DNA of 56,613 nt. Source: a bacterium (GTDB lineage Bacteria > SAR324 > NAC60-12). Below the pieces are notes generated by a model, which saw only the letters and a list, made by a program, of their open reading frames with translations, did not search any database and was not told where the DNA came from. The translations under genes and the position numbers were made by a program. The stretch covers positions 1-56,613 of the forward strand of contig CBDDTI010000523.1 of assembly GCA_965233585.1 (NCBI GenBank). Reading direction: 5' to 3'. How positions within the stretch are numbered: position 1 is the first letter of the stretch; the number at the start of each line of letters is the position of its first letter. Below, piece after piece: positions 14,747 through 37,139 of the stretch.

Positions 14747-14752
14747 TCCACG

Positions 14753-15835: not shown

Positions 15836-15841
15836 TTCTTT

Positions 15842-16251: not shown

Positions 16252-16971
16252 TTATTGCTCTAGACTTTTAAGACATCTGTATAAAGACATAACACTGACG
16301 CCTAAAATACGAGCCGTATTTTTGACGCTCGGATATAGTGCTCTTGTTTCTTTTAAAAAGGCATAAGCACATGCTGCTAATAAAGTCCTAGGAGCAAAAG
16401 AACTATTTTCATTTTTATTTAGTTTTTCTTTTATAGTTGTCATCTCTTGATAATTTAACTGTAGAGGCTGTAAAAAATATTCTGCCATATCTTTTGCTTT
16501 TATAGAATTTTCTGTTTTAATTGTGTTGGTCGAATCTTGTCTGTATAATTTTATCCATCGCCATACCGTTTTTGGGCTAATACCAATTTCCTGACACAAG
16601 TGACTTATTGGGCGGGGAATTTTTTCCTCTATTAAACTTTGATACAATGCCATAGCAATTAAGCCTTTTGGATTAATTTTAATTTTTCCATTTTTTTGAT
16701 AATGCCACGCTGCTATTTCTGACCACAAGTTAAAAATAGTGTTTGTAACATCATTATTTAAATGTAATTTATTACATAAATTTTTTAAAATATTTTTTTC
16801 CTTCTTTAAATGTTCGCTGTTTTGTTCAAATTCTTCATTTAAATTTTTTATTTTTTCCCATTTTGTTTCTAAATTTGGATCACAATATATTTTATCAATA
16901 ACTAAACCACACTCGGTGCACACTACGTCTCCTTGTCTGGTGTCTTCTATTATATATTGATGAATGCACAT
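16252..16971 (-). CDS. TFIIB: TFIIB-like transcription initiation factor
   Basis: N-terminal Zn ribbon CIH..IIEDTRQGDVVCTECGLVID; two cyclin-like repeats (LCNKLHL..., IPRPISHLCQEIGISPKTVWR, PRTLLAACAY...TARILGVSVMSLYRC). Confidence 0.9.
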   Translation of the reverse strand: MCIHQYIIEDTRQGDVVCTECGLVIDKIYCDPNLETKWEKIKNLNEEFEQNSEHLKKEKNILKNLCNKLHLNNDVTNTIFNLWSEIAAWHYQKNGKIKINPKGLIAMALYQSLIEEKIPRPISHLCQEIGISPKTVWRWIKLYRQDSTNTIKTENSIKAKDMAEYFLQPLQLNYQEMTTIKEKLNKNENSSFAPRTLLAACAYAFLKETRALYPSVKNTARILGVSVMSLYRCLKSLEQ

Positions 16972-17077
16972 TTTAATCCAATCTAATTTTTGAACATAAT
17001 TTCATTGTTTATTGTACGAAGTTCAAAATTTAACTGATTTTACAAATAATCCGACGTAATCTTTTATTATATTGAAT

Positions 17078-17620
17078 TTATTCAGTTTTATATTTTTTCA
17101 GCAATTCAGAAATAATTTTTATTCCTTGTGTAGCGTCTTTTTCGCAGGAAGCTCCAATTATTACTATTTTTCCAGACGAAAATATTAAAGCAGAACACTT
17201 TTTTAATGTTAAAAACATTCCAGGAAATTTCTCAGAGTCGTATCTCTTTTGGATAATTTCAAAATCTACATTTAATTTCAAATTGTTGTAAAATGTTAAT
17301 AAATTGATTTTTGATGACATATGACACAAACAAGTCATGTTTTCTATTTTAAACTTTTCAGTAATAAATTTACTACTTATAACAAGTTTTAATTCGTCTA
17401 ATGCTTTTGGTATATGCTCTGTGGAAGGGATTTTAGTAATATTTACGTGGAAATTTCGATTTTGCTTTGTTTTAGTAAACACAATAAAAGAATATTTTTT
17501 TTTAACAACAGTAAAATTATTATAATGTTTTAGTACATTATCGGTATTAAAAGAAATTTTGTCACTGTCGATGAGACGAATTTTGCAACTGATTTTAACA
17601 TTGCTGACCATCACTTCCAT
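17078..17620 (-). CDS. TBP: TATA-binding protein (TBP)-like
   Basis: ATG at 17620. C-terminal repeat KIENMTC...INL...YDSEKFPGMFL....SALIFSSGKIVIIGA matches the TBP repeat consensus; the N-terminal repeat (VSNVKISC...FIVF...VNITKI) is diverged. Confidence 0.88.
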   Translation of the reverse strand: MEVMVSNVKISCKIRLIDSDKISFNTDNVLKHYNNFTVVKKKYSFIVFTKTKQNRNFHVNITKIPSTEHIPKALDELKLVISSKFITEKFKIENMTCLCHMSSKINLLTFYNNLKLNVDFEIIQKRYDSEKFPGMFLTLKKCSALIFSSGKIVIIGASCEKDATQGIKIISELLKKYKTE

Positions 17621-17626
17621 CTTGGT

Positions 17627-18985
17627 ATGGGCTTGCCTGACAAAAGCGGAATTGCTGGATTGGCCGTGGAACAAAACGATGGCACAGAAAGTGGTTTAGC
17701 GCTTCACGCACCCTTAGAAGTGGAAACGGGTCTATTGGAAGGGGCTCACGTTATTTACAATAGCGTGGCTTCTATCACCAACACCGGTCCGGTAGAATTT
17801 CTTGTTCCTCGCGACAACGAGTGTTCTTTTATACTGAGTCAAACCAGACTCAGTGGGCATTTTGTAGTGACAAATGATGACGGCGGCTTTGTCACGGAGG
17901 CAAGTAAAACCGCGTTGGTAAATCATTTTGCTGCTTGTTTATTCAGTCAAGTAGAAGTGTATTTGAACGGTGTTCAAGTAGCTGATTTAAGTTCGGCGGT
18001 CACCTACCCCTGGAGAATGTTTTTACAATCATATTTAAGTTACAATATTGACGTAAAAGACACTTATCTGGCTGCCGAAGGATATTATCCCGAAACTATA
18101 GACGAAGTTACCACCACCAAAATTACCGAAGAAGTTTCCTCTAATTCTTTGAAAAAAAGAAAGAATTTGATTTTAAACGGGAAAAAAGTATTTTTTAACT
18201 CGCGTATAGCTGTTGATCTGTTTGACACTGATCGATTCTTACCACCAAATGTGGATATCAAGATAAAATTGGTTAGATCGGCTGAAACATTTGGTTTGCT
18301 TCAAGATCCTGCAGCAGCAAAACCTTTCAAAATTGTGTTAAAAGATGTCAAATTGCATATGAGAAAAGTGTTGCCTACGTTGATAATACGAGAAAGTTTC
18401 AAAAACAAACTTTTAAAAGAACCGTGCTACCTGCCTTTTAGCTCTACACGTTTAAGACATTACGTTATTCCTCAAGGCGTGTCGTCTTTTAACATCGCTA
18501 ATATTGCTAATGGAACATTACCCAAACAAGTGTTTTTTGTGATGGTTCACAATCAGGCTATGTCGCATGCTCCCGACAAAAATCCTTTTAATTTTCAACA
18601 CTTTAATCTTTCCTCGTTTAATTTAAAAAAGAACGGGCAATGCGTATTTCCCAAACCTTTTCAACCTAATATTGAGGAGGGGGACGTTGTTGATTTGTAT
18701 CGACATTTATACGACAGTATAGGCATTTCGCACGGCAATCAGTCCATTGGCTTGACGTATGATGCTTTTATAAATGGAAGATTTTTTCTGGCGGCCGACT
18801 TGACACCAGATCAATGTAATTCGTACCACACTCATCCAGAAAATTATGGAAATTTAGATTTAGAGTTGGCTTTTTCCCAAATCACTCCCCATCCAATATA
18901 CGTTCTGGCCTTATCTATTTTTAACTCCGGTATTAAAATAGATCAATTTCAACAAGTAAAAGGAACCATAAAAGGAACCAATTAA
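17627..18985 (+). CDS. Major capsid protein (double jelly-roll, PY/hexon-like)
   Basis: SITNTGPVEFLVP, CLFSQVEVYLNG, DLFDTDRFLPPNVDIKIKLVR, GTLPKQVFFVMV, KNPFNFQHFNL and ADLTPD are Polinton MCP motifs; 452 aa. Confidence 0.93.
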   Translation: MGLPDKSGIAGLAVEQNDGTESGLALHAPLEVETGLLEGAHVIYNSVASITNTGPVEFLVPRDNECSFILSQTRLSGHFVVTNDDGGFVTEASKTALVNHFAACLFSQVEVYLNGVQVADLSSAVTYPWRMFLQSYLSYNIDVKDTYLAAEGYYPETIDEVTTTKITEEVSSNSLKKRKNLILNGKKVFFNSRIAVDLFDTDRFLPPNVDIKIKLVRSAETFGLLQDPAAAKPFKIVLKDVKLHMRKVLPTLIIRESFKNKLLKEPCYLPFSSTRLRHYVIPQGVSSFNIANIANGTLPKQVFFVMVHNQAMSHAPDKNPFNFQHFNLSSFNLKKNGQCVFPKPFQPNIEEGDVVDLYRHLYDSIGISHGNQSIGLTYDAFINGRFFLAADLTPDQCNSYHTHPENYGNLDLELAFSQITPHPIYVLALSIFNSGIKIDQFQQVKGTIKGTN

Positions 18986-18988
18986 AAT

Positions 18989-19471
18989 ATGGAGGGTGGG
19001 TTATCAAATATCTTTTTAAACAATTACATTCGACCCAGATGTAAGAATTTCATCGGGGTATTTTCGGTCGACGACTTGCCATCTGATCCGCTTTCATTGC
19101 CTTGCTGTCTGATCGCTAACTTATCCAAAAGAAATCAAGAAGGATCTCATTTCGTAGCAATGTACATTAACAAGAAAAATCAACTCTATTATTTTGATTC
19201 TTTCGGTTTTTTACCACCGATATGGAACAAATGTTTGATGAAGTTTTTACGACCCTGGATAGAGAAAAACTCCTTCAAAATTATCTTATCTCACTCAATT
19301 CAGAGTTTCCGTTCTTTGTTTTGTGGATGGTACACGTGCGCATTTTGTTTATCTGTGGGCAACAATTTAATGACCCCTCAACAATTTGTTAAATTATTTG
19401 TAAAAAATCCCAAATCAGAAAACGATAAAATTGTAACTCACTTTATAAAAAAAATTGAAAATAAATGTTAA
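18989..19471 (+). CDS. Adenain-like cysteine protease
   Basis: GSHFVAMYI (His), YYFDSFG (Asp), IQSFRSLFCGWY (Gln/Cys). Confidence 0.95.
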   Translation: MEGGLSNIFLNNYIRPRCKNFIGVFSVDDLPSDPLSLPCCLIANLSKRNQEGSHFVAMYINKKNQLYYFDSFGFLPPIWNKCLMKFLRPWIEKNSFKIILSHSIQSFRSLFCGWYTCAFCLSVGNNLMTPQQFVKLFVKNPKSENDKIVTHFIKKIENKC

Positions 19472-19484
19472 TATATTTTTACTT

Positions 19485-20945
19485 TCATAACTTTGGATAT
19501 TTTCCTGAAAAAAGTTTTTTAACAGAATCTACTTTAGCTTCTGATTTAGACATTTTTCTTGTTTTTGATCTGGTTTTTGCAGGAGACACACCAGCTTCAA
19601 TAGGGTCCCTGTTTATTGGGCTTTTAGATTGTGACATTTTCATTGATTTTGATCTGATTTTGGTTTGTGCAGGAGTCATGTCAGCATCAGTGGAATTTCT
19701 TTTTGTTGCACCCTTTGATTTAGCTTTTCCGGCTGAAAATCGTATTTTAACAGGTGTGAGTGGAAATGAAGGAGAAGAGCTTCCAATTCCTCTTAATCTT
19801 CTTTTTCGAGGGGTAGAGGTCATTCCAAAAATTTTATTTTGATTTCTTACAGACAATTCTTTATAATGTTCTTTCATCATATGTTTGGCAAATTGTGGAA
19901 TGCCGACATATTGCTTCCCGCAATTGGGAAAGGGACAAACTATTTTGCCAGCTGCATTCTTTTCTTTCACTGCTTTTGCAATAGGTGTATTTCGCCAATT
20001 TAACACAACTGGAGATTTTATTGTGGAAAGTGCGTATGAGTAATCCATTTCATTTGAGCTGTTTCTTCTAGCGTAAGGGCTGGAAATCATTCCTTTAATG
20101 GTCTTTTTGTCTTTCAAAGCTATATCTTTAGGATGATCTTTTAGCAAATGTTTGCCCAATTGCCCTTCGTCAACATATTGCTTCCAACAATCAGGAACTG
20201 GACAAACTAATTTGCCTTTTGAATTTCTTTTCGTCATCGCTTCTAAAACAGGTGTTTCTCGCCATTCTTCTCGTTTGGTAGTAACAGGAGTTGAATAAGC
20301 TGATTCGTTCGGACTTTTTGTTTTTTCAGGACTAAGAGATTTTTCTGCAACAAATTCTCTTTCAATAATGGGGGTACTAGGTAAATTATTTTCTTCTTGT
20401 TGGGGAATTTCAGTGGGTGTTCTGTAAAGAGATACGTCCGTGAGATCCATATCGGAATCAATTCGAGCAGGTGTTAGTGCATTTGGTATTTCTTCTCGTT
20501 GCGTAATTTGGGTGGATGGTGATCTTAAAACCGGGTGGTAAGCGCGGTCAATACTGCTACCTTTTTGGGTAACTCGACCAGGAGACATTACATTCTGTAT
20601 TTCTTCTCGTTGAGGAATTTGAGTGGATGGTGATCTCGAAAGAGATTGGTAAGTACGACCCATGCTATCAGATTGGGCAATTGATGTGACATTCGGTAAT
20701 TTATCAGACCCAAAACGAAGTAATTTATCCCCAGTTTGGATTATTTTCTGTCTGTCTTGTAGATTTTTAAATTTAATGGCATTTTCAATATAGTTGGTTG
20801 TTTCCGGTTTTTCATTCATAGAAATAAGTTCTTTTTTTGATTCATCGTCTTCCGTATTTTTTATTAATGAATAATATAATCTTTTAGGTACTAAAAACAT
20901 GGAATACATTTCATCATGTGGTTTTATTTTTACTCCTGAGCTCAT
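19485..20945 (-). CDS. Ser/Thr-Pro-rich basic protein with two C2H2 zinc fingers
   Basis: CPVPDCWKQY...LGKHLLKDH and CPFPNCGKQY...FAKHMMKEH; N-terminal MFLVPKRLY; internal repeats; position between protease and ATPase. Confidence 0.8.
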   Translation of the reverse strand: MSSGVKIKPHDEMYSMFLVPKRLYYSLIKNTEDDESKKELISMNEKPETTNYIENAIKFKNLQDRQKIIQTGDKLLRFGSDKLPNVTSIAQSDSMGRTYQSLSRSPSTQIPQREEIQNVMSPGRVTQKGSSIDRAYHPVLRSPSTQITQREEIPNALTPARIDSDMDLTDVSLYRTPTEIPQQEENNLPSTPIIEREFVAEKSLSPEKTKSPNESAYSTPVTTKREEWRETPVLEAMTKRNSKGKLVCPVPDCWKQYVDEGQLGKHLLKDHPKDIALKDKKTIKGMISSPYARRNSSNEMDYSYALSTIKSPVVLNWRNTPIAKAVKEKNAAGKIVCPFPNCGKQYVGIPQFAKHMMKEHYKELSVRNQNKIFGMTSTPRKRRLRGIGSSSPSFPLTPVKIRFSAGKAKSKGATKRNSTDADMTPAQTKIRSKSMKMSQSKSPINRDPIEAGVSPAKTRSKTRKMSKSEAKVDSVKKLFSGKYPKL

Positions 20946-20947
20946 TT

Positions 20948-21322
20948 TTAACGACGACGTCGCGAACTCTTATTTGCAATAATTTGGGCCAAAAGAGGGA
21001 TGACGGTGCTGGCGATCGCTGATAAAACTCCTAAAATTCCGCCTTTTTGTAATATTTTTCTTTTTTTTGAAATGTCGGAAGAACGACGCGGCGGTGCAGC
21101 AAGACGTCTAAATTCTGACAAATGAGCTCTTATCTTTTTTTGAAGACGTGTTCGTACTTTGCCATGTATGGGCAAGTCACCGTTCAACACGTAATGTAAT
21201 ATACGACAAAGCAATTCAACTCCGCGATCGTCCAAATGACTTAAAAAATTGGCACAATCCTGATGTTTTAATTTTTTTATTACATAAAAAAGTGAACTAG
21301 CTTTTCCTAATGTTTTAGACAT
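20948..21322 (-). CDS. Conserved small Polinton basic protein with a Q-x-GG cleavage-like motif
   Basis: LCRILHYVLNGDLPI...RRLA...KKRKILQKGGILGVLSAIASTVIPLL. Confidence 0.75.
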   Translation of the reverse strand: MSKTLGKASSLFYVIKKLKHQDCANFLSHLDDRGVELLCRILHYVLNGDLPIHGKVRTRLQKKIRAHLSEFRRLAAPPRRSSDISKKRKILQKGGILGVLSAIASTVIPLLAQIIANKSSRRRR

Positions 21323-21370: not shown

Positions 21371-22066
21371 TTAAACGGTAACGTAAGCTTTCATCAGTCC
21401 CTCGTACGGAAAAATGTTGCTTCGAATTCTGACTTTATCGTCTTGTTGTTGATGGAAATCTAGAAGGAGATATCCGTGACTTCGACCGTTAACAGCTTCC
21501 CTGTATGCTTTATTTAAAATTCCGACTCGTCCGGGGAAAATTTGTTTAGCCAAATGCGCAACCGCACTTCTGTCCCGAGGATTGTTAAAAAGAACCATAT
21601 ACTGAGTGTTTATGCTTAATGTCCGCAAATCACCTTTTTTATCAAATAAATTTTGACACAGAAAAACGGTGAAACAATTGTAGTGATGAGTCAAAACCGT
21701 AAAAAAATGTTTTAATATTTGTCCAACATCGTCTAAATAATCATCAAAAACAACTAATTTGGGCATTTTTCTTGGATATGATTCCAAAATATCTTTTAGT
21801 TCTTCAATCGAATTTGGAATACTTTTAAATTTACGAAATGTTGGAAAACGAGAGTTTGAACGTTTGTCTCGATTCATATCATCTTCCATGTATTCATAAG
21901 CTTTTTGTGGTTCTTTGTAGAACAACAACATTGTTTCTGGTGGAGTTGCAAAATATTCATGCCTACCAACCACTAAATGTTTAAGCCACGTTGTTTTTCC
22001 ACTCGATGTTGGGCCAACAATTAACATGTTGGAAGGAATACTGAACCTTAAATCAAAACCATCCAT
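21371..22066 (-). CDS. A32/FtsK-like genome packaging ATPase
   Basis: Walker A GPTSSGKT, Walker B LVVFDD, THHYNCFTVFLCQNLF, RTLSINTQYMVLFNNPRD and HGYLLLD. Confidence 0.95.
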   Translation of the reverse strand: MDGFDLRFSIPSNMLIVGPTSSGKTTWLKHLVVGRHEYFATPPETMLLFYKEPQKAYEYMEDDMNRDKRSNSRFPTFRKFKSIPNSIEELKDILESYPRKMPKLVVFDDYLDDVGQILKHFFTVLTHHYNCFTVFLCQNLFDKKGDLRTLSINTQYMVLFNNPRDRSAVAHLAKQIFPGRVGILNKAYREAVNGRSHGYLLLDFHQQQDDKVRIRSNIFPYEGLMKAYVTV

Positions 22067-22129
22067 TTTGCTAGTTTTTGAAAAATATTTAAAAATTTTT
22101 TCTTAAATAAAAGTAACAATATGTTTTAT

Positions 22130-25100
22130 TTATTTACAAATAGGGCATTTAGATGATTTGTTGTTGACAATAAGACAATTTCCTAGTGATAAAGTGTGAT
22201 ATCCGCAATTCAAAATGTGTCTTTTGGAATCCATTGCTGATAACGCAATCTTTCTTTGAAAACATGTCCGAATTTTATGATTCTTTGATCTTAAGTTTTT
22301 GAAAGATTTGTAAATTAGAACAGTCCGTTTCAGACATTTTTTGTAATCGTTATAGGTTAATTGCTTTTTTATGCTAGATTTTTTTAAACCTTTGCAAATT
22401 TTCTTTTCTTCTGTTTTGTTTTTGTCTGAAAAATCAGTAATTTTCATAGAATAACATTTTGGACGTAAGCCTATAAAGTGAGTAATAGCTGCTCTGCCTT
22501 TTAGTTCGTCTTTGAAATAAAAAAGCTGATTGGCTCTACTGTCATCGAAAAGAGGATGTTGTTTGGGGTACTTTGAAAAATCAAATATGTGCTCCAATTT
22601 TTTCATTTCCCTTTCCAAGTTGTTGCATCTTACTTTTAAAAGAAAAGAATCCGTGTCTGAGAAACATAAAGACACATTTTCTTCGCCAAAATGTTGTTGA
22701 ATCGTGTCATAATACGATCTGTACATAAACAACTTGGACAATTCCAAAATAGAAAATCCAACAGCTAAAGGCTTCCTGAGCTCTATTATTGCCGGCTTCT
22801 TGTTGACAGCCACCAAGTTTTCATTGATGATTTGAAAACTGTTGATGTGTTGACCAAGACTGGCTTTCCTTAAGCTCTGTTCATCACCACAAAGGACCAC
22901 TTCAGAGTAATTTCGAACATTTTCTGAAATGCAGAATAAGATTTATTTAATAAAGAAAATTGATTATGTGCGCAATCACCTCAGCTAACTAGCCGTCCCA
23001 TATCACATTTCATTTTCCTCTGTAATTAGCAATGTACTATAATTTACTTCAATTTGAAATCATTCCTTTTTTAAAGCCCGACATAAACGGACATCAAAAA
23101 TTCCAACAAAATAAACACTAAGTCAAAATGGATAAAAAAGATCAGGAAAAGAGCAAAGCTTTTTGGTTAAAAGTAATAGAATCAGCCCAGGAGGAGGCAA
23201 CTTCAAGTCCGACTTCTGGCAGTAGCTCTACCGGGGCTGCGGCTGGGGGAGCATGGTCATCTACTAAAACTGAGGGAGCATGGTCATCTTCTGGGGCTGC
23301 GGGTGGAGGATCATGGGCATCTTCCGAGCGTCCCGTGGCACCTGCTTGGCCATCACGGACTCCGTACAAGTCCGTCCCACAAAAATCAGGGTCGGAGTCG
23401 TGGAAGAGCGCATCTACTGCCGGGGTCGGGGGCGGAGGAGCATGGTCATCCACTAAAACCGGAGGAGCATGGTCATCTTCTGCGGCCTTGGGTGGGGAAT
23501 CATGGTCATCTTCCGAACGTCCCGTGGCACCTGCTTGGCCATCACGGACCCCGTACAAGTCCGTCCCACAAAAATCAGAGCGGGAGTCGTGGAAGAGCGC
23601 ATCTACTGTCGGAGCCGGGAGTGGGGGAGCATGGTCATCTACTAAAACTGGAGGAGCATGGTCATCTTCTGGGGCTGTGGGCGGAGGAGCATGGTCATCT
23701 GCTAAAAATGAGGGGGCATGGTCATCCACTAAAACTGCGGGAGCATGGTCATCTTCTGCGGCCTTGGGTGGGGGATCATGGGCATCTTCCGAACGTCCCG
23801 TGGCACCTGCTTGGCCATCACGGACCCCGTACAAGTCCGTCCCACAAAAATCAGGGTCGGAGTCGTGGAAGAGCGCATCTACTACCGGGGCTGGGGGCGG
23901 GGGAGCATGGTCATCCACTAAAACCGGAGGAGCATGGACATCTTCTGGGGCTGTGGGCGGAGGAGCATGGTCATCTGCTAAAACTGAGGGGGCATGGTCA
24001 TCTACTAAAACTGGAGGAGCATGGTCATCTTCTGCGGCTTTGGGTGGAGAATCATGGGCATCTTCCGAGCGACCCGTAGCACCTGCTTGGCCATCACGAA
24101 CCCCGTACAAATCCGTCCCACAAAGGTCGGAGTCAGAGTCACGAAAGCAGACCTCTCATCGCGTGTCATTTGATTTGTCTTCACAATCAACACAAAAATC
24201 TAAACCACAACCCTATACTCACGTGGAACCTTCACCAACACCAGAAGTGCGTCAAGTAACGGCATTTCCATCAGTGTGGTCTCCGTCTACAGCTCGAAAA
24301 GTTACAAAAAAAAATTAAAATTTAAATTTGATCATTTTTCTTTTTCTTTTTGATTACAAAATAAACACATCATTTTATAAAAATTGATTTTTCAAAAGTT
24401 TGCGTACTTGATTAATTCATTTTGCGAATTTTTAATTTAATATTGATTTAATATTATGAATATTTATGAGATAATTTGCTAATTAATATGTGAAGGTTTG
24501 GAGATTCATTTTCTAAAATTGACAAAACCATGCGGGAAAATTCAAAACAAATTTAGAGAAGGAAGAGGAGAAGGAGAAGGAAAAGGAAAATGGACAAGGT
24601 AAAGTTAGGAAGGATGAGGAGGGGGAAATACGAGGTGTTGAGGGCGAAATGGACGGAAGAGGAGGAGGAGGAGAAGTTCAAGCTGCTGCCGGACCCGCCA
24701 TTGAGCGAGACACCGCCGCGTCCACCACTGATGTGGGGCGGTGGCCGTTTTAGACGGCTTGCCAGAGGCTTGATCATGATGATCAGGACGGCCGCCGCCT
24801 CCGTCGCCGACTTTGTCGCCGGTCGTCCGGACGTCATCCCCACCGACGTCATCCCCGCCAACGTCATCCCCACCGACGTCAGCCCCGCCGACGTCATCCC
24901 CGCCGACGTCAGCCCCGCCAACGAAGCCGATGTTTCTGAAGATGACGATTTTGATGAGGCTAAGTGTGTGGTTGGTGCCGGCAGGACGTACTGCCGCAAC
25001 TGTCGCCGGTACCACCACGCACTTGTGCCTCAAAATTAAAGAAAAATACAAAAAATGACCCCAAATTCGTTTGAGTATTTAACAAATTCATTTTTTACAG

Positions 25101-28037
25101 AAAAATGGACTGCGTCAAATTACGCTTTTGCGTCTTTTACAATCTCAACATCATTAAATTATCTTATCTCAAAACTTACCAATAAATTTTCCAAAAGTAG
25201 AGTTGGCAAAAAGTTTAAAAAGCCGGAGTTCAAAGTCATTGCGAGCATTTGATCGCAGCTTTGTGACCTTTTCGATGAACTCCTTCAAAAAAGCTTTTTG
25301 TCGAAACTTCATGACTCTTCTTATCTTCAGCAACTTCATGCCCTTTTTCAAGTAGTACTGCAGGTTTTCCAGATGCACCACGTACTTTTTTCGGTCATAA
25401 AAAGTGCTCAACAATTTCTTGCTCCGGTATCTTTTGTTCCTATAATCTCGAGGACAGTGATGTTTCAGTAAACGGCGATTGTAAGGAGATAGATGTTTAA
25501 AAGAAACCGTGTCTGTATACGGAGCCAGCGGAAATTGATCGTGTGCCTGAAAATGATATCATGTAACTTGTCAAAACAATAAATAACGTATCACAACAAA
25601 GATCGGATTTACCTGGTGAAGATGAGAAGGATAATGCAAATCAACTTCGAACGCATATCCAGTATCGTCTTGCGAAGGAATGTTGATAATATCTTCGGCA
25701 GTCCATTTTTTAAATTCTGTTTTTGAAACCCATTGGAAATCAGAAACTGGTAATTTTAAAGTTTCCATACTCCCGTATAAGTTGTTGGCTGAAAAATTGT
25801 ACGGATCATAACAAAAATGATTTCATCAGATAATACAGTATAAAATTACCATCAATGTATAACAAGTGATCGCCGCTTTTTCTAGGATTGCTATTCCCTT
25901 TGGCATAACGCTGAGCGATAAAACTTTGCCCACCTCTGATACCCTTTGTAAAAAAACGCTCCATTTCAGGATCGGAATAGACATCTAATGATCCGAGGGG
26001 TTTGGAGGTTTCAGATTCGGATGTGAGCTTATTATCTGATTTAGCTTGTTCTGAATTTTGAAAGAACATAAGCATGACATCAAAACTCAAGCCAGGAATT
26101 CCTAATTTAGGTAGAACAAATTTAGTATTACGATACATCCAACAGTAAAGATTAAAGTTTACCTAGATAATAAACAGGATCCAATTGAAAATGTTCCATA
26201 ACCATTTTCCTGTACTGAAGAAATGCTTCACACAGCAAAACAACGTCTAAAGAACAATAGAGCATCATGTAATCCACCACATTCTTGCATTTGAACGATT
26301 TAAAGACTTCTTGAGCATGGGAATAATCCGCTTCCGTAATGTGTTCTTCGTTTAATTCAGAATAAAAAGAGTCTTTGGACGGAAGGTTTCGACTTTTCTT
26401 CATCTCTTGTAAAGATTGGAAATGTTCGTAACAAAAAACGCCTTTTCTTTTTAAAAGTTTTAAAGCTTTTGATTTTTGACGAACAGGAATTTTTTTATAT
26501 CTTTCCATTTGTTGTAAAATGGGAAAGGTAAAATTTGAGGTCTGATTCAAATCTTGAACAAGTGCATCTAGACTGCCAGAAATGTGCTCTAACGAATCTT
26601 GAATTTTAAATTTGCCCAATGTAAGAGTGCGAAACTTTTCACTGTTTTTTGCTAAGACTTTTACATTTTGCTTAAATTTGGAAACATTTAACTCTTCCAC
26701 GATTAAATGCAAATCGTATCTGAAACGCGTACATAATTTGTGTTAGTTTAATAAATAAACCCAATTAAGACTTCTTACCCTTGAGCGTTGTGGAAAAAAA
26801 TTGGTGTGTGAAAGGGGCCGGATCTCGTCAAGTTACACAGTGAATGAGCTGCGCCCATTATTTTCCCTGTCACGTGATCATGATCTAGAACTTTTCTGTA
26901 ATTTCTAGAGTACTTTTTGAATTGACCACCACAAATATGACAAACTTTTGCTTTTTGATACATTTGCCATTCTTGCGGACTAGATTGATTTTTAACAATA
27001 TGTCTGAATTTTTGTTTTCTTTCGTCAACAACTTTTTCATAGAAATGCATTCGATCCAAAAAATGTTTGGCTGCATCCTCTCCTACATATTCTTCTTGAA
27101 AAAATACCTCATCATTCGAATCCACAAAAAGCAAGCTATACCCCACTGGTCTATGCACGTTTATATCGTCACTGGTGGGAAAAGCACACAAACACTCAGT
27201 TTTTAAACAGAGTTGACATTTAGATCGTTCTTTGTTTCTTTGAAGTACACATTCAAAATCACAAAATCCAACAACAGGAGCATGAAATTTATGTTTATGA
27301 TTGGTAAAACTTATGGAGGAATTTTTACTTGGGTAGATAGCACGTTGTTTATCACAGCAAGTGTTTTCGTGTTTTTCTTTTTTAGATTTGGATCGAAAAT
27401 GAAGCAGACATTTTTCACAATAGATGTGCTTCTGTTGAGCTGCTTTTTTACCCGACAACAGTCCGGCCCGATTATTCAAAAAACCTTGGATTTTGGTAAT
27501 TTTAAAGAAATGGTGCTGTTGATTTAAATCCTTGATCTTTTTAAACTTGGAAGAAAAACCCAATTTGACATTAGAACTACAATTGACAATCTTTTTACAA
27601 GAAGATTTTTTCTTGCGTTGAATTGGTTTTGCAAGGCGAGAAAATGGAGATTCATTTTCAAGAGAGATTTCAGGATCATATTTTATCATTAACAAATTTA
27701 AAATGTTTTTGTTTCTGTTGTTGTTTTTATTAGTAAAAAAACCTAACTTTGAAACTTGACCTTCACTCTCATAAAAAACTGAAATTGAAATTGGTAAATG
27801 GGAGTTTCTATTTAAGAATTTTTTTAAATTACAAAATTGAAGAGGGAATTTGAAACCTCTTATATTAAACTTTTTAAGATACTTTATCGGCATTTGACGA
27901 AAATCAACAACGGAAACCGTTTCCTCAGGAAAAAGATGTCTAATGTACAGATAAAGAAAATTGAATTTATCGTAACGAGTTTTCCATTCCAAGCAATTAG
28001 ATCTCTTTAAATCACGTGGAATTTCTATAAAATCCAT
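22130..28037 (-). CDS. polB: Protein-primed DNA polymerase B, six exons (1134 aa when spliced)
   Basis: Exons 28037-26779, 26719-26163, 26101-25850, 25788-25613, 25546-25180 and 22923-22130 total 3405 nt in one open frame. GT-AG splicing rebuilds HNAQGYDLH, YYLGIPGLSFD, YIDANNLYG, HQAHDQFPLAP and KLFANSTFGKFIENVR. Also has DFEC (ExoI), DTDS and an EndoVII-like CHIC...DHDH...HSLCN insert. Confidence 0.92.
23128..24318 (+). CDS. Ser/Gly/Trp repeat protein nested antisense in pPolB intron 5
   Basis: 396 aa, ATG in AAAATG context; many GGAWSS units and four SERPVAPAWPSRTPYKSVPQ blocks; AATAAA at about 24360. Confidence 0.75.
   Translation: MDKKDQEKSKAFWLKVIESAQEEATSSPTSGSSSTGAAAGGAWSSTKTEGAWSSSGAAGGGSWASSERPVAPAWPSRTPYKSVPQKSGSESWKSASTAGVGGGGAWSSTKTGGAWSSSAALGGESWSSSERPVAPAWPSRTPYKSVPQKSERESWKSASTVGAGSGGAWSSTKTGGAWSSSGAVGGGAWSSAKNEGAWSSTKTAGAWSSSAALGGGSWASSERPVAPAWPSRTPYKSVPQKSGSESWKSASTTGAGGGGAWSSTKTGGAWTSSGAVGGGAWSSAKTEGAWSSTKTGGAWSSSAALGGESWASSERPVAPAWPSRTPYKSVPQRSESESRKQTSHRVSFDLSSQSTQKSKPQPYTHVEPSPTPEVRQVTAFPSVWSPSTARKVTKKN
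24590..25039 (+). CDS. Hypothetical protein nested in pPolB intron 5 (P-A/T-D-V repeats, Cys/His C-terminus)
   Basis: 149-aa GC-rich ORF with AT-rich flanks; 15-nt tandem repeat at 24825-24920; ends CRNCRRYHH. Confidence 0.55.
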   Translation: MDKVKLGRMRRGKYEVLRAKWTEEEEEEKFKLLPDPPLSETPPRPPLMWGGGRFRRLARGLIMMIRTAAASVADFVAGRPDVIPTDVIPANVIPTDVSPADVIPADVSPANEADVSEDDDFDEAKCVVGAGRTYCRNCRRYHHALVPQN

Positions 28038-28089
28038 TTCCAAAGTTTATTTGAAATTTTTTTGAATAAAACAAAATAAGTTTATTAAA

Positions 28090-28809
28090 TCAAATGCTAG
28101 TAATTTGAATATCGCTAAAAGATAAAGATTCAAATCTCCATCCAGAACCTCTCATTAACAAATCTTCTTCTCTATTTACTAAATTATGTAATAATTTTTG
28201 GACTTTGCCTTTTAACGAGCGGGATGAATCAAAAGACGTGAATTGAATGTAGCTGGTTCTTAGAGCAAAAACATCTCGATCATTGGACAATATTTGAGGC
28301 GACGACTGATCAGAAGGTTTATCAGAGGTATCATCAATATTGGTAGTATCTAGTTCAATGTCCTTCTTCTCTGCAGCGGAATTCAAATCAGGAATTTGAT
28401 ACGCCGCTGTCAAAATAAGGGCAACTTTAACCGTAAAAGTTTTACTTAGTTCGTGACAAATAACGTCAACTATTTCTTGTCTATTTTTTTTATTTGCAAC
28501 AAATCCTTGAAGCGTTTCTTTTGAAAAAATGTGTTTTCGATAAAATTTGATTTTTCCGTTAAGTGCGGATTTGTACAATGAATAATTTAAATTTTCTAAA
28601 TGAGAAGCGTCAATGTGTGAGACTAAATCTTTTCTTGATTTAAAGGAACTTACTTCGTTCTTACAAAATGGGCATTGAAACGACTGATTAAGTGGGGTCC
28701 GAGCTCGAGATTTTGTAGTTTCGCGATGACGGAATAAATGATGTTTGTCGCGAGAAGATTTTCTGTCAAATGATTTTTGGCATTCGGGACACACGTAAGA
28801 TTTCGGCAT
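28090..28809 (-). CDS. C2H2 zinc-finger protein ending in the GSGW motif normally found at the pPolB N-terminus
   Basis: CPECQKSF...DKHHLFRH and CPFC...LVSHIDASH; C-terminal EEDLLMRGSGWRFESL. Confidence 0.8.
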   Translation of the reverse strand: MPKSYVCPECQKSFDRKSSRDKHHLFRHRETTKSRARTPLNQSFQCPFCKNEVSSFKSRKDLVSHIDASHLENLNYSLYKSALNGKIKFYRKHIFSKETLQGFVANKKNRQEIVDVICHELSKTFTVKVALILTAAYQIPDLNSAAEKKDIELDTTNIDDTSDKPSDQSSPQILSNDRDVFALRTSYIQFTSFDSSRSLKGKVQKLLHNLVNREEDLLMRGSGWRFESLSFSDIQITSI

Positions 28810-28895
28810 TCTTACAAAATTCTGAAATCAAAATTTATTTTAACATTAATTTGAGACTACATTTTATAATATATACATTATGAACTCAAAAAATC

Positions 28896-29681
28896 TTAAG
28901 AAGACAACAACTCCCTACATCGTTGCAATTGAGTGTTTAATCTTTGGCATTCGTTTTGAAGCCAAAGATTTTGTCGCTCAAGTGATCGTATTTGACGTTG
29001 AATCAAAGACTCAGCATATCTTTCATTAATATCGAAAATTACTCTTCTTCTGTTGAATAAATGTTCGACACAAGTAGAATAGTGGTAGTCATCATCCGTC
29101 TCATCAAAATCCTCCTCCTCCTCAAATTCTTCCCCATCGCTGTTTATAAAAATAACGGAACTTGAACGAGAACCGTTTATGGTAGAGGCCGAAGTTTGAG
29201 TTGCTGGACGACGGTAAGGGTGAAAATATCTTCCACCCCTGCCAGCACCGCCTCCAACCTCCCGCCCAGCCCTTGGAGCAGAAGTAGATGGTTGAGGATT
29301 TCTTTGAATTGGTTGACCTCGACCAACACCACGCCCGACATTCGAAATATTTGAGGTGTTGCGGACAGACCCACCTCGTCCAACTCCGCGTCCAGCAAAA
29401 AGGGGGTTTGAGACGTTATTTGGTCTCGCTAACCTCTCACCTCGTCCAATCGGTACAACAGTTGGAGAGACTGATGTTAAATCATCAGAATTGATGGTTG
29501 ATGTCAAATCGTCAGAGTTATTAATAACGTTTGTAAGGTCCGATGTTGAATCATCGGCAGCGTTGTTGTTGTTGTTGATGTTAGAGTTTGATGTTGAATC
29601 ATCAGCAATACGTACTGTAACCCTTAACCCTTGTGAGTCATGGGTTACTTGACGAGATTCAGAATTGTTAAGACCAGGCAT
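28896..29681 (-). CDS. RG/RGG-rich, acidic protein with a C-terminal heptad coiled coil
   Basis: GRG repeats, FHPYRR, EEFEEEEDFDETDDD and IRSLERQNLWLQNECQRLNTQLQRCRELL; TATA-like TATAAAA on the minus strand at about 29771-29777. Confidence 0.75.
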   Translation of the reverse strand: MPGLNNSESRQVTHDSQGLRVTVRIADDSTSNSNINNNNNAADDSTSDLTNVINNSDDLTSTINSDDLTSVSPTVVPIGRGERLARPNNVSNPLFAGRGVGRGGSVRNTSNISNVGRGVGRGQPIQRNPQPSTSAPRAGREVGGGAGRGGRYFHPYRRPATQTSASTINGSRSSSVIFINSDGEEFEEEEDFDETDDDYHYSTCVEHLFNRRRVIFDINERYAESLIQRQIRSLERQNLWLQNECQRLNTQLQRCRELLSS

Positions 29682-29899
29682 TTTTACCTTGAGAATTGAC
29701 TTGGGGTAGAAGACTTTTCTTGGTAAATGAACGAAAATGGAATGACGGAATGGAAAATATAAATCCTGACTTTTATAGAAATTTAAGCGGTGAGGCGCTC
29801 ACTTTTAAACGGTTTCTAGACCAATCGCACAAGGAAATAACTGCACGAGAAAAATCCTGCCCAACACCCTGAACAATCAAATTTCTGACAGTAAATTTA

Positions 29900-31750: not shown

Positions 31751-33167
31751 TTAAAGCGAAGTGGGCGGATGCAAAACAGAAGAAGCAGATTTTGAAGACT
31801 CCTCTTGAGCGGTGGTGACGGAAAAAAGAGGGTTGGAAGAATCATTGAAAATTTGAGTTCGTCGTCTGTCAAACATAGAACGTGAATATAACGGAGTTGG
31901 GTCATCTTGAGCGGTGGTGACGGGAAAAAGAGGGTTGAAAGACTCATTGAAATATTGAGCCCGTCGTCTCTCGAGCGTAGTACGTGGATACAACGGAATT
32001 GGGCGAATCACTGGTTGAAAATGAGATTTCTAAAAATAATAAAGTAAATGTATGATTATAATGAATGATTTTGAAAATAAAAAAATATTTTTACCGCCAA
32101 ATCCGTCAAATATGATTCATCAGTATTCATTATTTTGTTGCATGTTTTTGGTCCTGAATTGACAATAGCTGGAGAAGAAGGAGCGTCCAAAACTTCAACA
32201 TTTGTTTCAGAAGTTGAATCTTGATCGGCTTTCTCACGACGAAGTGTTGACATTTCATAAAACTGAAAATAAATAGGAAAATTATAATTTTTGTAAAACA
32301 GAAATTTTAAAATAAAATACTTACTTCAGAATTGGGTTGATTGTGTTGAGTTAATTGGTTATTCAATCTCCAAAATTTAATTGTTAGGACCGTTACCAAA
32401 AGACATACGATCATAAGAATAACAATTACTAATAATTTAAATCCGTCTGCAAAATAGTAATATGAATATTAGAGAAAATAAATGTAAAACTGAAACAAAT
32501 GAGACTTACTGTCAAAGGTAAATTGTTCAAGCAAAAATTCACCAAATGTCATCTTTGGAATAGTGATTAAAGGCTTTGAAGTGGTGATGGTAGAGGTGAT
32601 TGTTGCGGATGGGTTTGTTGTGAATGTGGGGCTGGTGGTTGAGGTAGTAGGGGTGGTAGTTGAGGTAATTAATGTAGGTGAAGAGACAGTGGTTAATGGG
32701 GTGTTAGAGGTGATTGTTGCGGTTGTGGAACTAGTTGTTGATACAGTCGAAGTTGTTGAAGTTGTAGGCATGGACGTTGGTACAGTGGTAGTGACGCTGT
32801 TGGTGGTAGAGGTAATTGATGAAGTCGAAGAGAAGATGATTGGTAAGGTAGAAGAAACAGTAGTTGTGGATGTGGTGCTGCTAGACAATGAAGTAGAGGT
32901 AGTTGTAATAGTAATGGAGCTTGAAGTGGTAATTGTAGTGGTTGTAAACGGGGCGGCAGAAGTCGTAGTAATTGTGGTGGTGGTAGACACAGTAGTTGTG
33001 GAGGTGATGGTCGTCAATTGGTTGGTTACAGTTGAGTTGATAGTGGAATTAAAGAGGGGGTAAAATCCAGAAGACATTTTTAAAATATTTTCAAAAAAAG
33101 AAAGGTTTTGGGCAAAGGAATTTTGTGTCAAAAAAATGACACAAAAAAATAAAATAAAAAATTTCAT
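31751..33167 (-). CDS. Four-exon mucin-like type I membrane glycoprotein (408 aa)
   Basis: Exons 33167-32510, 32446-32325, 32262-32095 and 32029-31751; introns of 63, 62 and 65 nt. Signal peptide MKFFILFFCVIFL, Thr/Ser-rich ectodomain, TM LLVIVILMIVCLLVTVLTI and a cytoplasmic tail. Confidence 0.82.
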
Positions 33168-33634
33168 GACGGGTTTGGGTGTTGATGTCAATTAAACAAA
33201 ATTTTAATTTAGAATGAGGATTTCAAATTATGGAATTTGTGATTTTTATTTATATAATAAAAATTTCGGTCAAAACGCGCTCTTCTACATATTTATTATA
33301 AATAAGAAACGATTTTGACTGTTTATACTATGCATATAATATTGTACATTTAAATGCACATTGCGCGCAAAATCAATGAATTGTTTGCATTGACAGCATT
33401 GCATGAATTGAATGTAAAGGAACGAAAGACACGCGCTAAAAAAAAAAATAAGACATTGTACGTCAAATCAATGAATTGTTTGTTTTATTACGTAAAAAAG
33501 AATCATTGGTATTATTATTAACATTCACATAATATATTTGATAATGATATTCAAATAAAGCAAATAAACCAAGTGTCATACATAAAAAGCACAAACAACT
33601 CAATAGCCCAGGCGAAACATCATCTTCTACATAA

Positions 33635-34168
33635 TGAACCGAAAGCCCAAGACTGGGTGTTAGCCTGGACTGTCTACCTCGTGATAATTATCTCTTTGCT
33701 GCCTCTGTGTACTGTGCTCTATCTCTGTGTAAATGTTTGTTTCTCTCCTCCCCTTTTGCCGGTGGAGGAGTCTTTCACTTTCTCATGAATACTGTCATAT
33801 AGTGTAAATAAATGAGTTGATTCACGGACAGGAAACAGGAAAGACGTGTCTCAACAGAAGGAATTGACTTTCAGAATTCTTTCATAATTCTTACAATTAT
33901 CTTGTGATTGTTTGGTGATTGTTTTGTGACTAAATCCTCTTTCATCAGGGATACGATTCATTCGGAAACCTTTGATTGAGATCGAGTTACTCAAGGTGTA
34001 GCCGATTCCTCCGTGCTTAAGCACACTTAAGGCCACGGAGGACCGGCCTTCGCAGTAGGTCCCGGATTACATTCTCTTTGTCCTTTCAGCCAAGTTCACT
34101 CATCCGGAACCCATAAGGCCGGACTCGTCTACGCCCCAGAACCAACCGGAAAGGGCCGGTTCGGTTCA
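33635..34168 (+). repeat. 5' LTR (534 bp)
   Basis: TG...CA ends with a 9-bp inverted repeat; AATAAA inside; directly repeated at 42200. Confidence 0.95.
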
Positions 34169-34170
34169 TA

Positions 34171-34181
34171 TGGTGGCAGCG
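34171..34181 (+). promoter_or_regulatory. Primer binding site, tRNA-Leu type
   Basis: TGGTGGCAGCG, 2 nt after the LTR, is complementary to the tRNA-Leu 3' end CGCTGCCACCA; same PBS at 4655 and 55233-55243. Confidence 0.8.
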
Positions 34182-36426
34182 CTGTGCCCTTCTCTCTTTT
34201 TCCGGGGGGAGGTGTACAGGGCGTACCCCGTCACCGGAGAACGCCTCTGCACGCCCAGGCTACCAACCAAAAGACTAAGTATCGTTTGATGATCAGTCTT
34301 AATTCCGGTAATCCGTCCAATTTGTTCAAATTTCGTGTTTAAAATTCGTAATTGTTCCAAATGATCAAATCGTGATCCGAATAATCCGTTCCGTCGTTTC
34401 AATTCTAACCGAATCATCCATTCATTTTATTCCAAATTCCATTGCCATTAGGTACCATTTCGTCCTTTTTCGTATAAGTTTGTCCAGAATTAAATTGTTT
34501 AGTTGTTTCAGGTGCTCAAAAGTCACCTCCATGGCCTAACGGCCTAAGAGGAGGTAGAGGAACCGGTGCAGAATGATACAGGAATGTTGCAACAAGGCTC
34601 ATCATCATCATCATCATCAATCCCAATCCCATCATCATCCTTATCCCAATCCACCATCATCAGCGTCCCCATCATCATCATCAACCCAATCATCATCCTT
34701 CTCCCAACCACCATCATCATCCCCATCATCATCATCGTTACATCATCATCATCATCAACAGCAACATTCAGATAAGATTCAATTAAGGTTAAAGAATTAG
34801 TCAGGGTAGAAGGATTAGAAAGAATTAGTCAGAGTAGAGGGATTAGTAGGAATTAGTAGGACGCTGGGGCTCCGAGCCAACAAAGCCGGGGTCGGGTCAC
34901 CAATGCCAAGAGGTTTGGGGCTCCTTGCCGATTAGTAGAGCGTCTGGCAGGGTAACTTAAGGATGTTGGGCTCTGAGCAGGAGGCTAGAGCGCCGGAGAG
35001 CATCGCCCAGCGCGGGCATTAAGTGTGAGGGCCCTGGAAGAGGGTTGGGATCACCGATGTCATGAGGGTCGGGTTCCTTACGGTAAGCACGCAACTCTAG
35101 TGTGTTGGGGTCTCGAGGGAGCGAGATCAGGGTCCAGCTTCTCCCAGACAGGAGCTGGATGCCTTGCCTGTAGGCGCGAGGCTGTGGCAGGTCCCGGGAG
35201 GGGACGAAGTCAAGGACTCCATGAATTCCCCAGCTTGGCAGCCTCTGTCCAAGAGCAGATGGTGGCATCACATGTGGCCCGGAATTGCAGCCAGTTAGAG
35301 TAATAAAAGTGTGAATTTCGCATCCTGTCATAAAACCACAGGAAGGAGTTAATGTGCACAAATGTGTCCCACAATGGTAAAATTATGAGATTTGCATCCT
35401 GTTGTAAAATCACAGGGTAATGATTGTCATAAGGAAATTTCACACACAATTGCAACTGGCCACATTGTGACATCTGCTGGACAATTCCCTTTTGGGGGGA
35501 CTCCAAGCCCGGGAACATCGGGAGAGAAGCTTCACCACAGTCGTGAGAGAGTTGTTTTGACCAAACCAAACGCGCTGGGGAGTTATCAGTGTACTTCAGT
35601 GTACGTAGCAGAGGCTACCTGGGGAATTAGACTAGGGAATTAGCGGTTAACACACGTGGGGAATTATTGGCCATAACAGCCATGTGGCCAGGAAATTGTG
35701 ATATCAGAATTAACAAGGGGTGGAGAAATTCACAGGAGGATAAAATGTTAAAATAAGACAGTAAAGAAACCGCGGGAAATGGAATTCACATGACAATAAA
35801 ATTCAGTTAGTTCACATGGTAATCAAAAATCCTCAGTCAAGATAATGCCGGTCATAAAGTTGTCATGATAACGGAAATCCCATTGAGGTGGGAACTTTGA
35901 TTAATCACTCACATGTGAAAATTAGAAAGAAACCACATGGGAGGAAGTCCCATACCCCTTCTATTATCATCTGGACAGCAGTCCAACACCACCTTGGAGC
36001 ACAAACCTGGTATCAAATCATTCTGTATTCGACCTCTACCTCGACAGCACCTTCCAACAATTAAAAGTTGTCTTCCAAAATCTCTGACTGTGAAGTCAAA
36101 TTTCCAAAACTTGTGCAACTCAAATTGATTTCCCAACTTAGGAACTTTCATCAACACGGTAAGCCTTAACCTTAAACAAACTTAAGGGCATTGTCAAGTC
36201 AGAGAATCCAAGGCCCTTGTGTCTCATCTACCAGGGTAGGCCCTTCTGGGCTGCGGCTTGACCGCCGGTGAAGTCTTGGTCTTTTGGTTCAGCCTCAAGC
36301 CACGAACTTCAATTCGTACGAATCTCGTAGGGAATAAGGGAACCCTACCCTTATTAGTGGCCAGTCACCACGACCTGGCTTTGTAAACCAAAGATAATCT
36401 AACACTGTTCTTGTAATACTGTAGAA

Positions 36427-37139
36427 ATGCCGGGTACCGGGCGATCACGACGTCACCCCTACTTGGACGGGGCCCCCTACTTCTACATCGGGGAAAACTT
36501 CCGCGCCTGGAGGGCCCAGTTTGACGCTCTCCACGACATGAGCGGTGGCCTGACCGCACCGCCCGACGGTACGCCAACGCGTGCATGCAGGACTCCGCCC
36601 AAGATGCTATCCGGGATATCACCCTTGCCGGGCCTCGGAGTTGTGCCGAGATGTTGGATGCTTATGAGGAACGATTCCAACTCCTCGACGACCTGGTCCG
36701 GATCCGCATGCGGGAAGAAGGACTTCTCCGAGCACCCCGCCACCTACGTGGACCCGGCGGGAAGAGAAAAAGCCGCCTGAAACCCCGGGCGAAACGAGGA
36801 ATCATGACCCCGGTAGCTCGCCCACTTGCCCCGTGGGATACCGGCAATGGCGTTCGGAGGGAGACTGCCAGGGGATCGTGGGAGCCTTCCACCGCCGAAG
36901 AAGTCCAGAGAGAGATCATCCACTCCCGGGTACGCGCTCTACTGCGAGACCAACCCCAGCCTAGTGTTGAGGACTTGCAGATCTTCACTCGTATGCCGTC
37001 ACAATCCTCGTCGTCAGGGTCACCCCGGGTCCTCCCGCTCACCTCCTCTGCAGGGTCGTCCGCGAGTGACACACCACACCATCCCTGGGCCGGACCCAGC
37101 CACCGGAGCGACGAACCGGATTTTCAGTCAGGACAGTAG
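36427..37139 (+). pseudogene. gag: Mini-Gag (capsid N-terminal part only) with one frameshift near 36530
   Basis: YFYIGENFRAWRAQFDAL / RHERWPDRTARRYANACMQDSAQDAIRDI aligns with the family gag; no zinc knuckle; ends DFQSGQ* like the family's DFQKGQ*. Confidence 0.75.

Follow-up and report, generated by a model that had tools for sequence, protein, structure and literature searches.

We find that the DNA polymerase gene of a Maverick/Polinton-like element is very probably interrupted by five ordinary U2-type GT-AG spliceosomal introns. The gene lies on the minus strand at positions 22130-28037 of contig CBDDTI010000523.1 (GenBank assembly GCA_965233585.1), of which we analyzed a stretch of 56,613 nucleotides (nt), hereafter the window. 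By its motifs and profile matches, the region encodes the protein-primed family-B DNA polymerase (pPolB) of the element, with a predicted product of 1134 residues divided among six exons. A polymerase gene of this structure is relevant because Maverick/Polinton elements are generally taken to lack introns and are searched for on that assumption.

On the minus strand from 28037 to 22130, the map of open reading frames (ORFs) consists of six stop-to-stop ORFs in succession, with the frame shifting between them. We resolve these into the following exons and introns, all of whose coordinates, as proposed in a preliminary description of this DNA, were exact on recheck.

26779-28037, minus strand: pPolB exon 1, ATG at 28037, 419 full codons plus 2 nt (1259 nt); holds ExoI
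26720-26778, minus strand: intron 1, 59 nt, phase 2, GTAAGA...CTAAC...TTTCAG; splits ExoII
26163-26719, minus strand: pPolB exon 2, 557 nt; holds ExoIII
26102-26162, minus strand: intron 2, 61 nt, phase 1, GTAAAC...AATTAG
25850-26101, minus strand: pPolB exon 3, 252 nt
25789-25849, minus strand: intron 3, 61 nt, phase 1, GTAATT...TTTCAG; splits polymerase motif A
25613-25788, minus strand: pPolB exon 4, 176 nt
25547-25612, minus strand: intron 4, 66 nt, phase 0, GTAAAT...TTTCAG
25180-25546, minus strand: pPolB exon 5, 367 nt; polymerase motif B at its end
22924-25179, minus strand: intron 5, 2256 nt, phase 1, GTAAGT...TTTCAG
22130-22923, minus strand: pPolB exon 6, 794 nt including the stop; holds motif C (DTDS) and KxY

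The exon lengths (1259 + 557 + 252 + 176 + 367 + 794) add up to 3405 nt, or 1134 codons and a stop. Each exon is open in the frame given by the running length, with no stop or frameshift over the 3405 nt, so the single 1134-residue frame first proposed is reproduced in full. All five gaps contain a stop in the upstream frame, and the stop-to-stop ORFs terminate within the introns; a read-through protein is therefore impossible. Every intron has the form GTAA...YAG. The 5' ends read GTAAG twice, GTAAA twice and GTAAT once, and the 3' ends read TTTCAG four times and AATTAG once. The base before the intron is G in all five intron-preceding exons, and the guanine-cytosine (GC) content of the short introns is 25-29%. 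The branch-like CTAAC motif reported earlier for intron 1 is present. Removal of the introns joins HNAQ.YD in ExoII, YID.NNLYG in motif A and FGKFI.NVR just after motif B, and the restored junction motifs quoted before (HNAQG/YD, YID/ANNLYG and FGKFI/ENVR, the slash marking the junction) are correct. Introns 1, 3 and 5 (26720-26778, 25789-25849 and the junction at 25179/25180) cut or touch the best-conserved catalytic motifs, that is, ExoII, motif A and the residue after motif B.

The exons carry the complete set of motifs expected of the enzyme: ExoI (D.E), ExoII (N..YD), ExoIII, A (D.NNLYG), B (K...NS..GK), C (DTDS) and KxY. Exon 5 matches the Pfam family DNA_pol_B_2 (PF03175) with an E value of 6e-06, at the cutoff of 25.8 bits, and full-length homologs match the same family at 1e-19 to 1e-22, in agreement with the viral DNA polymerase identity assigned at the outset. 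A Protein Data Bank sequence search with the full-length homolog P0092 returned zinc-finger chains only and no polymerase. Between ExoI and ExoII, exon 1 holds an Endonuclease VII/HNH-type domain (26817-26984, minus strand; residues 352-407 of exon 1). It is matched by Pfam Endonuclease_7 (PF02945) with an E value of 8.8e-06 (26 bits against a cutoff of 23.6), and the same domain occurs in the homologs P0008, P0107, P0001, P0002 and P0146.

After removal of the five stretches, the predicted protein is colinear with uninterrupted homologs to the residue. A search with exon 6 against 1.84 billion representative proteins gave 6988 matches at E ≤ 1e-3, of which 372 reach E ≤ 1e-30; among the best 150 are many full-length proteins of 1050-1470 residues. 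Exon 1, searched against longer proteins, gave 2 matches only. We tested the joins on 152 proteins, namely the best 150 of the 6988 exon-6 matches plus the 2 from the exon-1 search. With blastp, the six exon peptides align in order along the same homologs, exon 1 falling on the N-terminal half of the full-length proteins. For each intron we took the homologs aligned within 3 residues of both exon ends and counted the join as exact if the number of subject residues spanning it was 1 (split codon) or 0 (phase 0). The join was exact in 60 of 61 homologs for intron 1, 18 of 19 for intron 2, 43 of 44 for intron 3, 67 of 72 for intron 4 and 87 of 88 for intron 5 (275 of 284 in total). In a second test, the window protein was written with an X at each break and aligned to 53 homologs of at least 1040 residues. 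The four split-codon X columns were occupied in all 53, and the extra X at the phase-0 join was matched in none of them (0/53). Large alignment gaps at the joins, which the preliminary description had named as the sign of a wrong model, were not found.

As far as sequence can decide the matter, the strongest evidence for introns is that relatives share them. The relatives are ORF fragments in a protein collection clustered at 90% identity. Exon 2 has 77 related clusters there, at 42-98% identity, and exon 5 has 43, at 69-99%. Fragments of 54-99% identity break off at the exon ends seen in the window. The clusters are mostly exon-sized, and several of the exon-2-related clusters hold 18-36 member sequences. 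Past exon 2, 63 of 66 informative relatives continue with the G of the split codon and then with unrelated AT-rich residues up to a stop; in 56 of these 63, the residue after the G is K or N, which corresponds to GTAAN. Three relatives run directly from exon 2 into exon 3. Past exon 5, 2 of the 30 informative relatives go straight through and the other 28 run into intron-like sequence, 25 of them with K or N as the next residue. Past exon 3, all five informative relatives continue with GK, GN or GM after LLY(I/V)D.

The 3' ends of the introns recur as well. Ahead of exon 2, 12 of 14 informative relatives end in ..FR, ..YR or ..NR (which corresponds to YCAG/A), one ends in ..PL, and one, P0227, is intron-less. 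Among 23 informative relatives ahead of exon 5, 11 end in Q (10, corresponding to CAG) or R (1), a further 5 retain a 19-22-codon intron 4 in frame, and 7 go straight through, so that 16 of the 23 have the intron.

Single introns are also precisely absent from some relatives. Intron 2 is exactly absent from P0206, P0217 and P0223, which read ..YY.GIPGLSFD, and intron 4 is exactly absent from seven clusters. One of these, P0250, reads ..YPKKYHKRD, which is the predicted spliced product of P0240, a relative that retains the intron in frame. Intron 5 is exactly absent from P0255, and P0270/P0003 read FGKFIENVR. Intron 1 is absent from one distant relative, P0227. Intron states are mosaic among the fragments: among those whose longest contig is 18,067 nt, P0217 keeps intron 3 without intron 2, and P0237 carries intron 5; among those whose longest contig is 8,998 nt, P0222 has intron 2 and P0250 lacks intron 4 but has intron 5. 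If the fragments of each set share one contig, such mosaics are genomic copies and not complementary DNA. Comparison with sibling copies, which had been suggested as a check, thus yields shared positions for introns 1-5 and exact intron-less variants for introns 1, 2, 4 and 5, all read from translated read-through. Kept ends, diverged interiors and precise losses, as they appear in these translated frames, are the normal behavior of spliceosomal introns. The positions are common to relatives down to ~55-60% protein identity, which implies that the introns are old.

The fifth intron was probably short originally, growing to 2256 nt when GC-rich, repeat-rich sequence was inserted later. In P0237, P0243, P0249, P0258 and P0248, ~21-35 codons of read-through separate exon 5 from exon-6 sequence, which follows out of frame; this places intron 5 of these relatives at ~65-105 nt. 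The intron in the window would therefore hold a secondary GC-rich insertion of ~2 kb. The features within it are as follows.

23122-25039, strand not assigned: GC-rich stretch in intron 5, ~47-54% GC against ~33% in the element; probable secondary insertion
23128-24318, plus strand: larger intron-5 ORF, 396 codons, 276-nt tandem repeats
24590-25039, plus strand: smaller intron-5 ORF, 149 codons

The GC-rich stretch contains tandem repeats with periods of 276, 189, 87, 27, 30 and 15 nt, and three of the six frames, on both strands, are open through the repeats. Neither ORF has a Pfam match, and an Atlas search with the smaller one found no neighbor. The three copies of the 276-nt repeat differ by 38, 26 and 24 substitutions at the three codon positions, a weak excess; because an antisense frame shares the same third position, this count cannot tell the strands apart. 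The preliminary description saw two nested genes here. The two plus-strand ORFs do exist, but their coding status is unsupported, given that they are made of repeats, that several frames are open and that they match no family. Both ORFs have the start context AAAATGGAYAA. Near their starts and ends (23106-23135, 24356-24368, 24584-24607 and 25099-25122), ACAAAATAAACAC occurs twice and AAAATGGAY three times, the third copy of the latter heading an ORF of 26 codons only. The recurrence of these motifs suggests duplicated units.

In the mechanism that we propose, the element would be transcribed in the host nucleus and the host spliceosome would remove the five introns. The resulting mRNA would encode the 1134-residue polymerase with its Endonuclease VII/HNH insertion, presumably an active enzyme. 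Because the element replicates as DNA, its introns would be inherited with it and would by now be established throughout a multi-copy lineage, in which individual introns would occasionally have been lost or gained with precision. Four of them would have stayed at the usual size for the family, 59-66 nt, and the fifth would have been enlarged later.

The polymerase gene lies in a low-GC block (~31-41%) that extends from ~11.3 to 33.6 kb and resumes at 42.7-44 kb. The other genes that we recognize in the element are listed below, together with a second gene that may contain introns.

14753-15841, minus strand: integrase with rve core and chromodomain, single ORF (Pfam rve 2.6e-09, Chromo 3.5e-05)
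17627-18985, plus strand: major capsid protein candidate (nearest Atlas clusters score 0.98, a lead and not an alignment)
18986-19471, plus strand: adenovirus-type cysteine protease candidate (Pfam Peptidase_C5, E value 0.0064, below cutoff)
21371-22102, minus strand: packaging-ATPase candidate, single ORF (Pox_A32 9e-04 and FtsK_SpoIIIE 6e-03, both below curated cutoffs)
28093-28827, minus strand: C2H2 zinc-finger ORF upstream of pPolB, in a separate frame (Pfam zinc-finger matches)
32056-33167, minus strand: second intron-bearing gene candidate of the element, with two candidate GT-AG introns
32447-32509, minus strand: candidate intron of this gene, 63 nt, GTAAGT...TTTGCAG
32263-32324, minus strand: candidate intron of this gene, 62 nt, GTAAGT...TTTTCAG

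The predicted gene set is that of a Maverick/Polinton-like element. The ATPase candidate begins 28 nt downstream of the pPolB stop, and the integrase lies ~6.3 kb from that stop (22130) on the same strand. GC content by codon position is 0.40/0.30/0.27 in pPolB, 0.43/0.32/0.27 in the ATPase candidate and 0.39/0.32/0.25 in the integrase. The Polinton setting first suggested for the polymerase is thereby upheld, as it lies in an element with an rve integrase whose codon-position composition it shares. PF21738 (DJR-like_dom) is found in 24% and 15% of the members of the Atlas clusters nearest to the capsid candidate, and no penton protein was identified among the element proteins. The recognizable core genes are single long ORFs.

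We had considered that introns might be confined to pPolB within the element, and dropped this view because of the two candidate introns in the gene at 32056-33167. The frames are open on both sides of these introns, one in-frame stop is removed with them, and the frame is restored only by removing both; their size and site type are as in the short introns of pPolB. The predicted product, a candidate mucin-like membrane protein, starts like a signal peptide and includes a Thr/Ser-rich region, a stretch resembling a membrane span, and a tail. This gene model comes from the frames alone, without homology support.

Several points weigh against the intron reading, or against a working gene in this copy. 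Use of the five junctions in RNA is inferred. The splice-site pattern is common: GTAA-N45-60-TTTCAG occurs 5 times in the window, 2.86 are expected, and 14 of 100 shuffles reach 5. With a count near expectation in an AT-rich window, the GTAA...TTTCAG pattern carries no weight by itself. Far beyond chance are the position of the predicted sites exactly at the frame breaks and the residue-exact colinearity obtained once the putative introns are removed. Splice-site conservation in the relatives was read from translated read-through and not from nucleotides, and protein databases contain open frames only, which biases them towards intact exons. The intron-less variants on short contigs could be genomic intron losses or assembled transcripts, which are indistinguishable here. 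The zinc-finger part that is fused to the N-terminus of the polymerase in some homologs has a separate frame in the window. No terminal inverted repeats were found by a repeat search over 9-36 kb or by blastn of the left edge (~11.3 kb) against 29.8-35.5 kb, 42.5-45 kb and the whole window. A long terminal repeat (LTR) retrotransposon is nested in the element; its LTRs (33633-34155 and 42198-42721; 524 nt, 99.4% identical) are the only long repeat pair found. Finally, intron 5 exceeds the others in length by a factor of ~35. The copy in the window may be dead.

The zinc-finger ORF resembles homolog N-termini in blastp, with residues 2-197 of P0013 matched at an E value of 5e-10 and further matches to P0008, P0092 and P0096. 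Between it and the ATG of exon 1 lie a stop, 44 nt and a change of frame, and a GT-AG bridge from this ORF to exon 1 is impossible because a stop precedes any GT. Many full-length homologs of 1056-1154 residues have no zinc-finger extension, which places the 1134-residue product within the range of the family.

The alternative that survives best grants that the introns are real for the family and holds that this copy is a dead relic, with a non-functional polymerase mRNA and a non-functional element. We judge it an even call. The length of intron 5, 2256 nt where relatives have ~65-105 nt, speaks for it, as do the nearly identical LTRs inside the low-GC element, the three unsuccessful searches for terminal inverted repeats and the transposable element (TE) fragments on both flanks. 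However, all six exons are open and retain every catalytic motif, and the other core genes are single long ORFs. The long intron begins with the strongest 5' site (GTAAGT) and ends in TTTCAG, and length alone does not make an intron unspliceable. The ends of the element have probably been cut by other transposons, so that the missing terminal repeats speak to this copy only. The gene was initially described as apparently intact. That description stands for its clean exons and preserved motifs, but not for the copy as a whole, in view of the ~2-kb insertion in intron 5, the absence of terminal repeats, the nested LTR retrotransposon and the separate zinc-finger frame.

It is far less probable that the polymerase has become a host gene, with introns gained after exaptation. 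An intron-rich structure is typical of host genes, and core Maverick genes are described as intronless (PMC8097293; bioRxiv 10.1101/2022.07.12.499685). However, pPolB is flanked by the ATPase gene and further ORFs of the element and has the same composition, the family is diverse and highly multi-copy (as the 77 exon-2 clusters and their memberships attest), and the presence of introns is mosaic among copies.

Marginally weaker still is the proposal that the introns are recent insertions of introners, intron-generating transposons that are known to populate Polinton-like proviruses of dinoflagellates (PMC11957031). The four short introns are indeed uniform in length (59-66 nt), but they share splice sites and AT-richness only, with a mean column identity of 59% and no common core, and their positions are old by the comparison with relatives given above. 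Furthermore, when the element (11.3-34.5 kb) was compared by blastn with the whole window (word size 11, E ≤ 1e-5), no match involved any of the four short introns. Self-splicing introns of group I or II were also considered and rejected: an Rfam scan of 22000-28900 at E ≤ 1 returned only a sub-threshold microRNA match (22 bits against a gathering score of 93).

The least credible alternative, a decayed pseudogene whose five gaps are chance indels resembling introns, can draw on the fragmented ORF map and on a GTAA...TTTCAG pattern that is not rare in the window, but it is contradicted by the residue-exact colinearity in 275 of 284 tests once exactly these five stretches are removed, by exons without stop or frameshift across 3405 nt and by the recurrence of the same breaks in dozens of diverged relatives.

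The probable spliceosomal introns in pPolB set this lineage apart from the vertebrate, nematode and protist elements compared here. Core genes are reported as intronless or as single ORFs, or the elements as free of introns, for vertebrate Mavericks (PMC8097293), for a nematode Maverick (bioRxiv 10.1101/2022.07.12.499685) and for endogenous Polinton-like viruses and virophages of protists (PMC10120064, PMC8547959, PMC9356565). These descriptions of vertebrate, nematode and protist core genes accord with the earlier statement that pPolB is normally one uninterrupted ORF. The gene in the window is like a Maverick/Polinton pPolB in its DNA_pol_B_2 match, its ExoI-III motifs, motifs A-C and KxY, and in its setting with an rve integrase and ATPase, protease and capsid candidates. 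It is unlike pPolB as described there in having five spliceosomal-type introns that appear to be kept across a lineage. Our literature search found no report of conserved spliceosomal introns in an animal Maverick polymerase, within a scope that did not include the founding Polinton papers or supplements, so that an earlier report is possible.

An HNH insertion is reported as a hallmark of the pPolB2 class of nematode and oomycete Polintons (PMC10748475). The HNH-superfamily domain (Endonuclease_7) that this polymerase and several homologs carry in their exonuclease half is like that class, a likeness by description only. The survey in that paper set thresholds of at least 900 codons for the pPolB ORF and at least 650 residues for a tBLASTn match, which would filter out a gene split like this one.

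Integrated Maverick-Polinton-like proviruses of dinoflagellates also contain introners (PMC11957031 / PMC12166617). Like the element in the window, they have spliceosomal-type introns within an integrated Polinton-like element, and they retain replication and capsid genes. The dinoflagellate introns are copies of identifiable transposon families and mostly young, whereas those described here are mutually unrelated and appear at positions common to relatives.

The GC-rich stretch of ~2 kb at 23.1-25.0 kb, inside intron 5, may have a parallel in the cargo of nematode Mavericks, which is GC-rich within an AT-rich element, 2-5 kb long and of low conservation, and carries non-core genes (bioRxiv 10.1101/2022.07.12.499685). 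However, the nematode cargo is flanked by the left terminal repeat and the integrase and contains recognizable intron-bearing genes, whereas the stretch in the window lies inside a polymerase intron and its ORFs are made of repeats.

The adenovirus E2B DNA polymerase is a protein-primed family-B enzyme of a nuclear DNA virus and is expressed through host splicing. In adenovirus, leader exons are spliced onto a coding body that is itself essentially uninterrupted. By comparison, the coding body of the polymerase described here is cut five times, and three of the cuts fall in or next to catalytic motifs.

Several discovery pipelines for these elements depend on single ORFs, through either prokaryotic gene callers or a pPolB ORF of at least 900 codons (as in PMC10748475). 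A multi-copy lineage with a five-fold split polymerase would be under-counted by such pipelines or scored as decayed. The lineage also offers a clean system for the study of intron gain and loss on a mobile element that copies itself as DNA. If our reading is correct, such elements can rely on the host spliceosome for a core replication gene, and this would bear on where and how they are expressed.

A bolder extension, which we regard as rather unlikely, is that the introns in pPolB and in at least one accessory gene are maintained by selection and that host splicing has become part of the expression of an animal Maverick lineage. A spliced transcript could possibly mimic host mRNA and so escape surveillance directed at foreign transcripts that are intronless or unspliced, or polymerase dosage could be set by intron retention. 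In this reading, one intron could serve as a safe landing site for GC-rich cargo, and genes of the element resembling TATA-binding protein (TBP) and TFIIB could be part of a nuclear RNA polymerase II program. It is equally a matter of speculation whether the mosaic of intron-less copies arose by repeated recombination with reverse-transcribed spliced mRNA; if it did, the mosaic would amount to indirect proof of junction use.

The TFIIB-like ORF is at 16252-17001 (minus strand; Zn_Ribbon_TF 3e-08, TFIIB repeat 2e-03) and the TBP-like ORF at 17078-17695 (minus strand; TBP 1.7e-16, with one repeat at residues 114-202). They are adjacent and lie between the integrase side and the capsid candidate. 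An element-encoded pair of initiation factors would be unusual for a Polinton, and our literature search returned no paper uniting Polinton, TATA-binding protein and TFIIB. Three more long ORFs of the element, on the minus strand, are unassigned. Those at 28896-29798 and 12995-14752 have no Pfam match, the latter (585 codons) being the largest unassigned ORF of the element, and the one at 19485-20969 has weak C2H2 and coiled-coil matches only.

The nested LTR retrotransposon (33633-42721) contains an ORF of 1607 codons (37070-41893) with a viral fusion glycoprotein domain of Monjiviricetes type (E value 3e-43). Just beyond the right edge of the low-GC block are Bel/Pao retrotransposon pieces (44256-46729, minus strand; Peptidase_A17 5e-36, DUF5641 6e-23, Integrase_H2C2), which point to an animal host. 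GC-rich arrays of ~32-nt units at 329-760 and 10759-11334, in direct and inverted orientation and with 77-80% identity, bracket the first 11 kb of the window and adjoin the left edge of the low-GC element.

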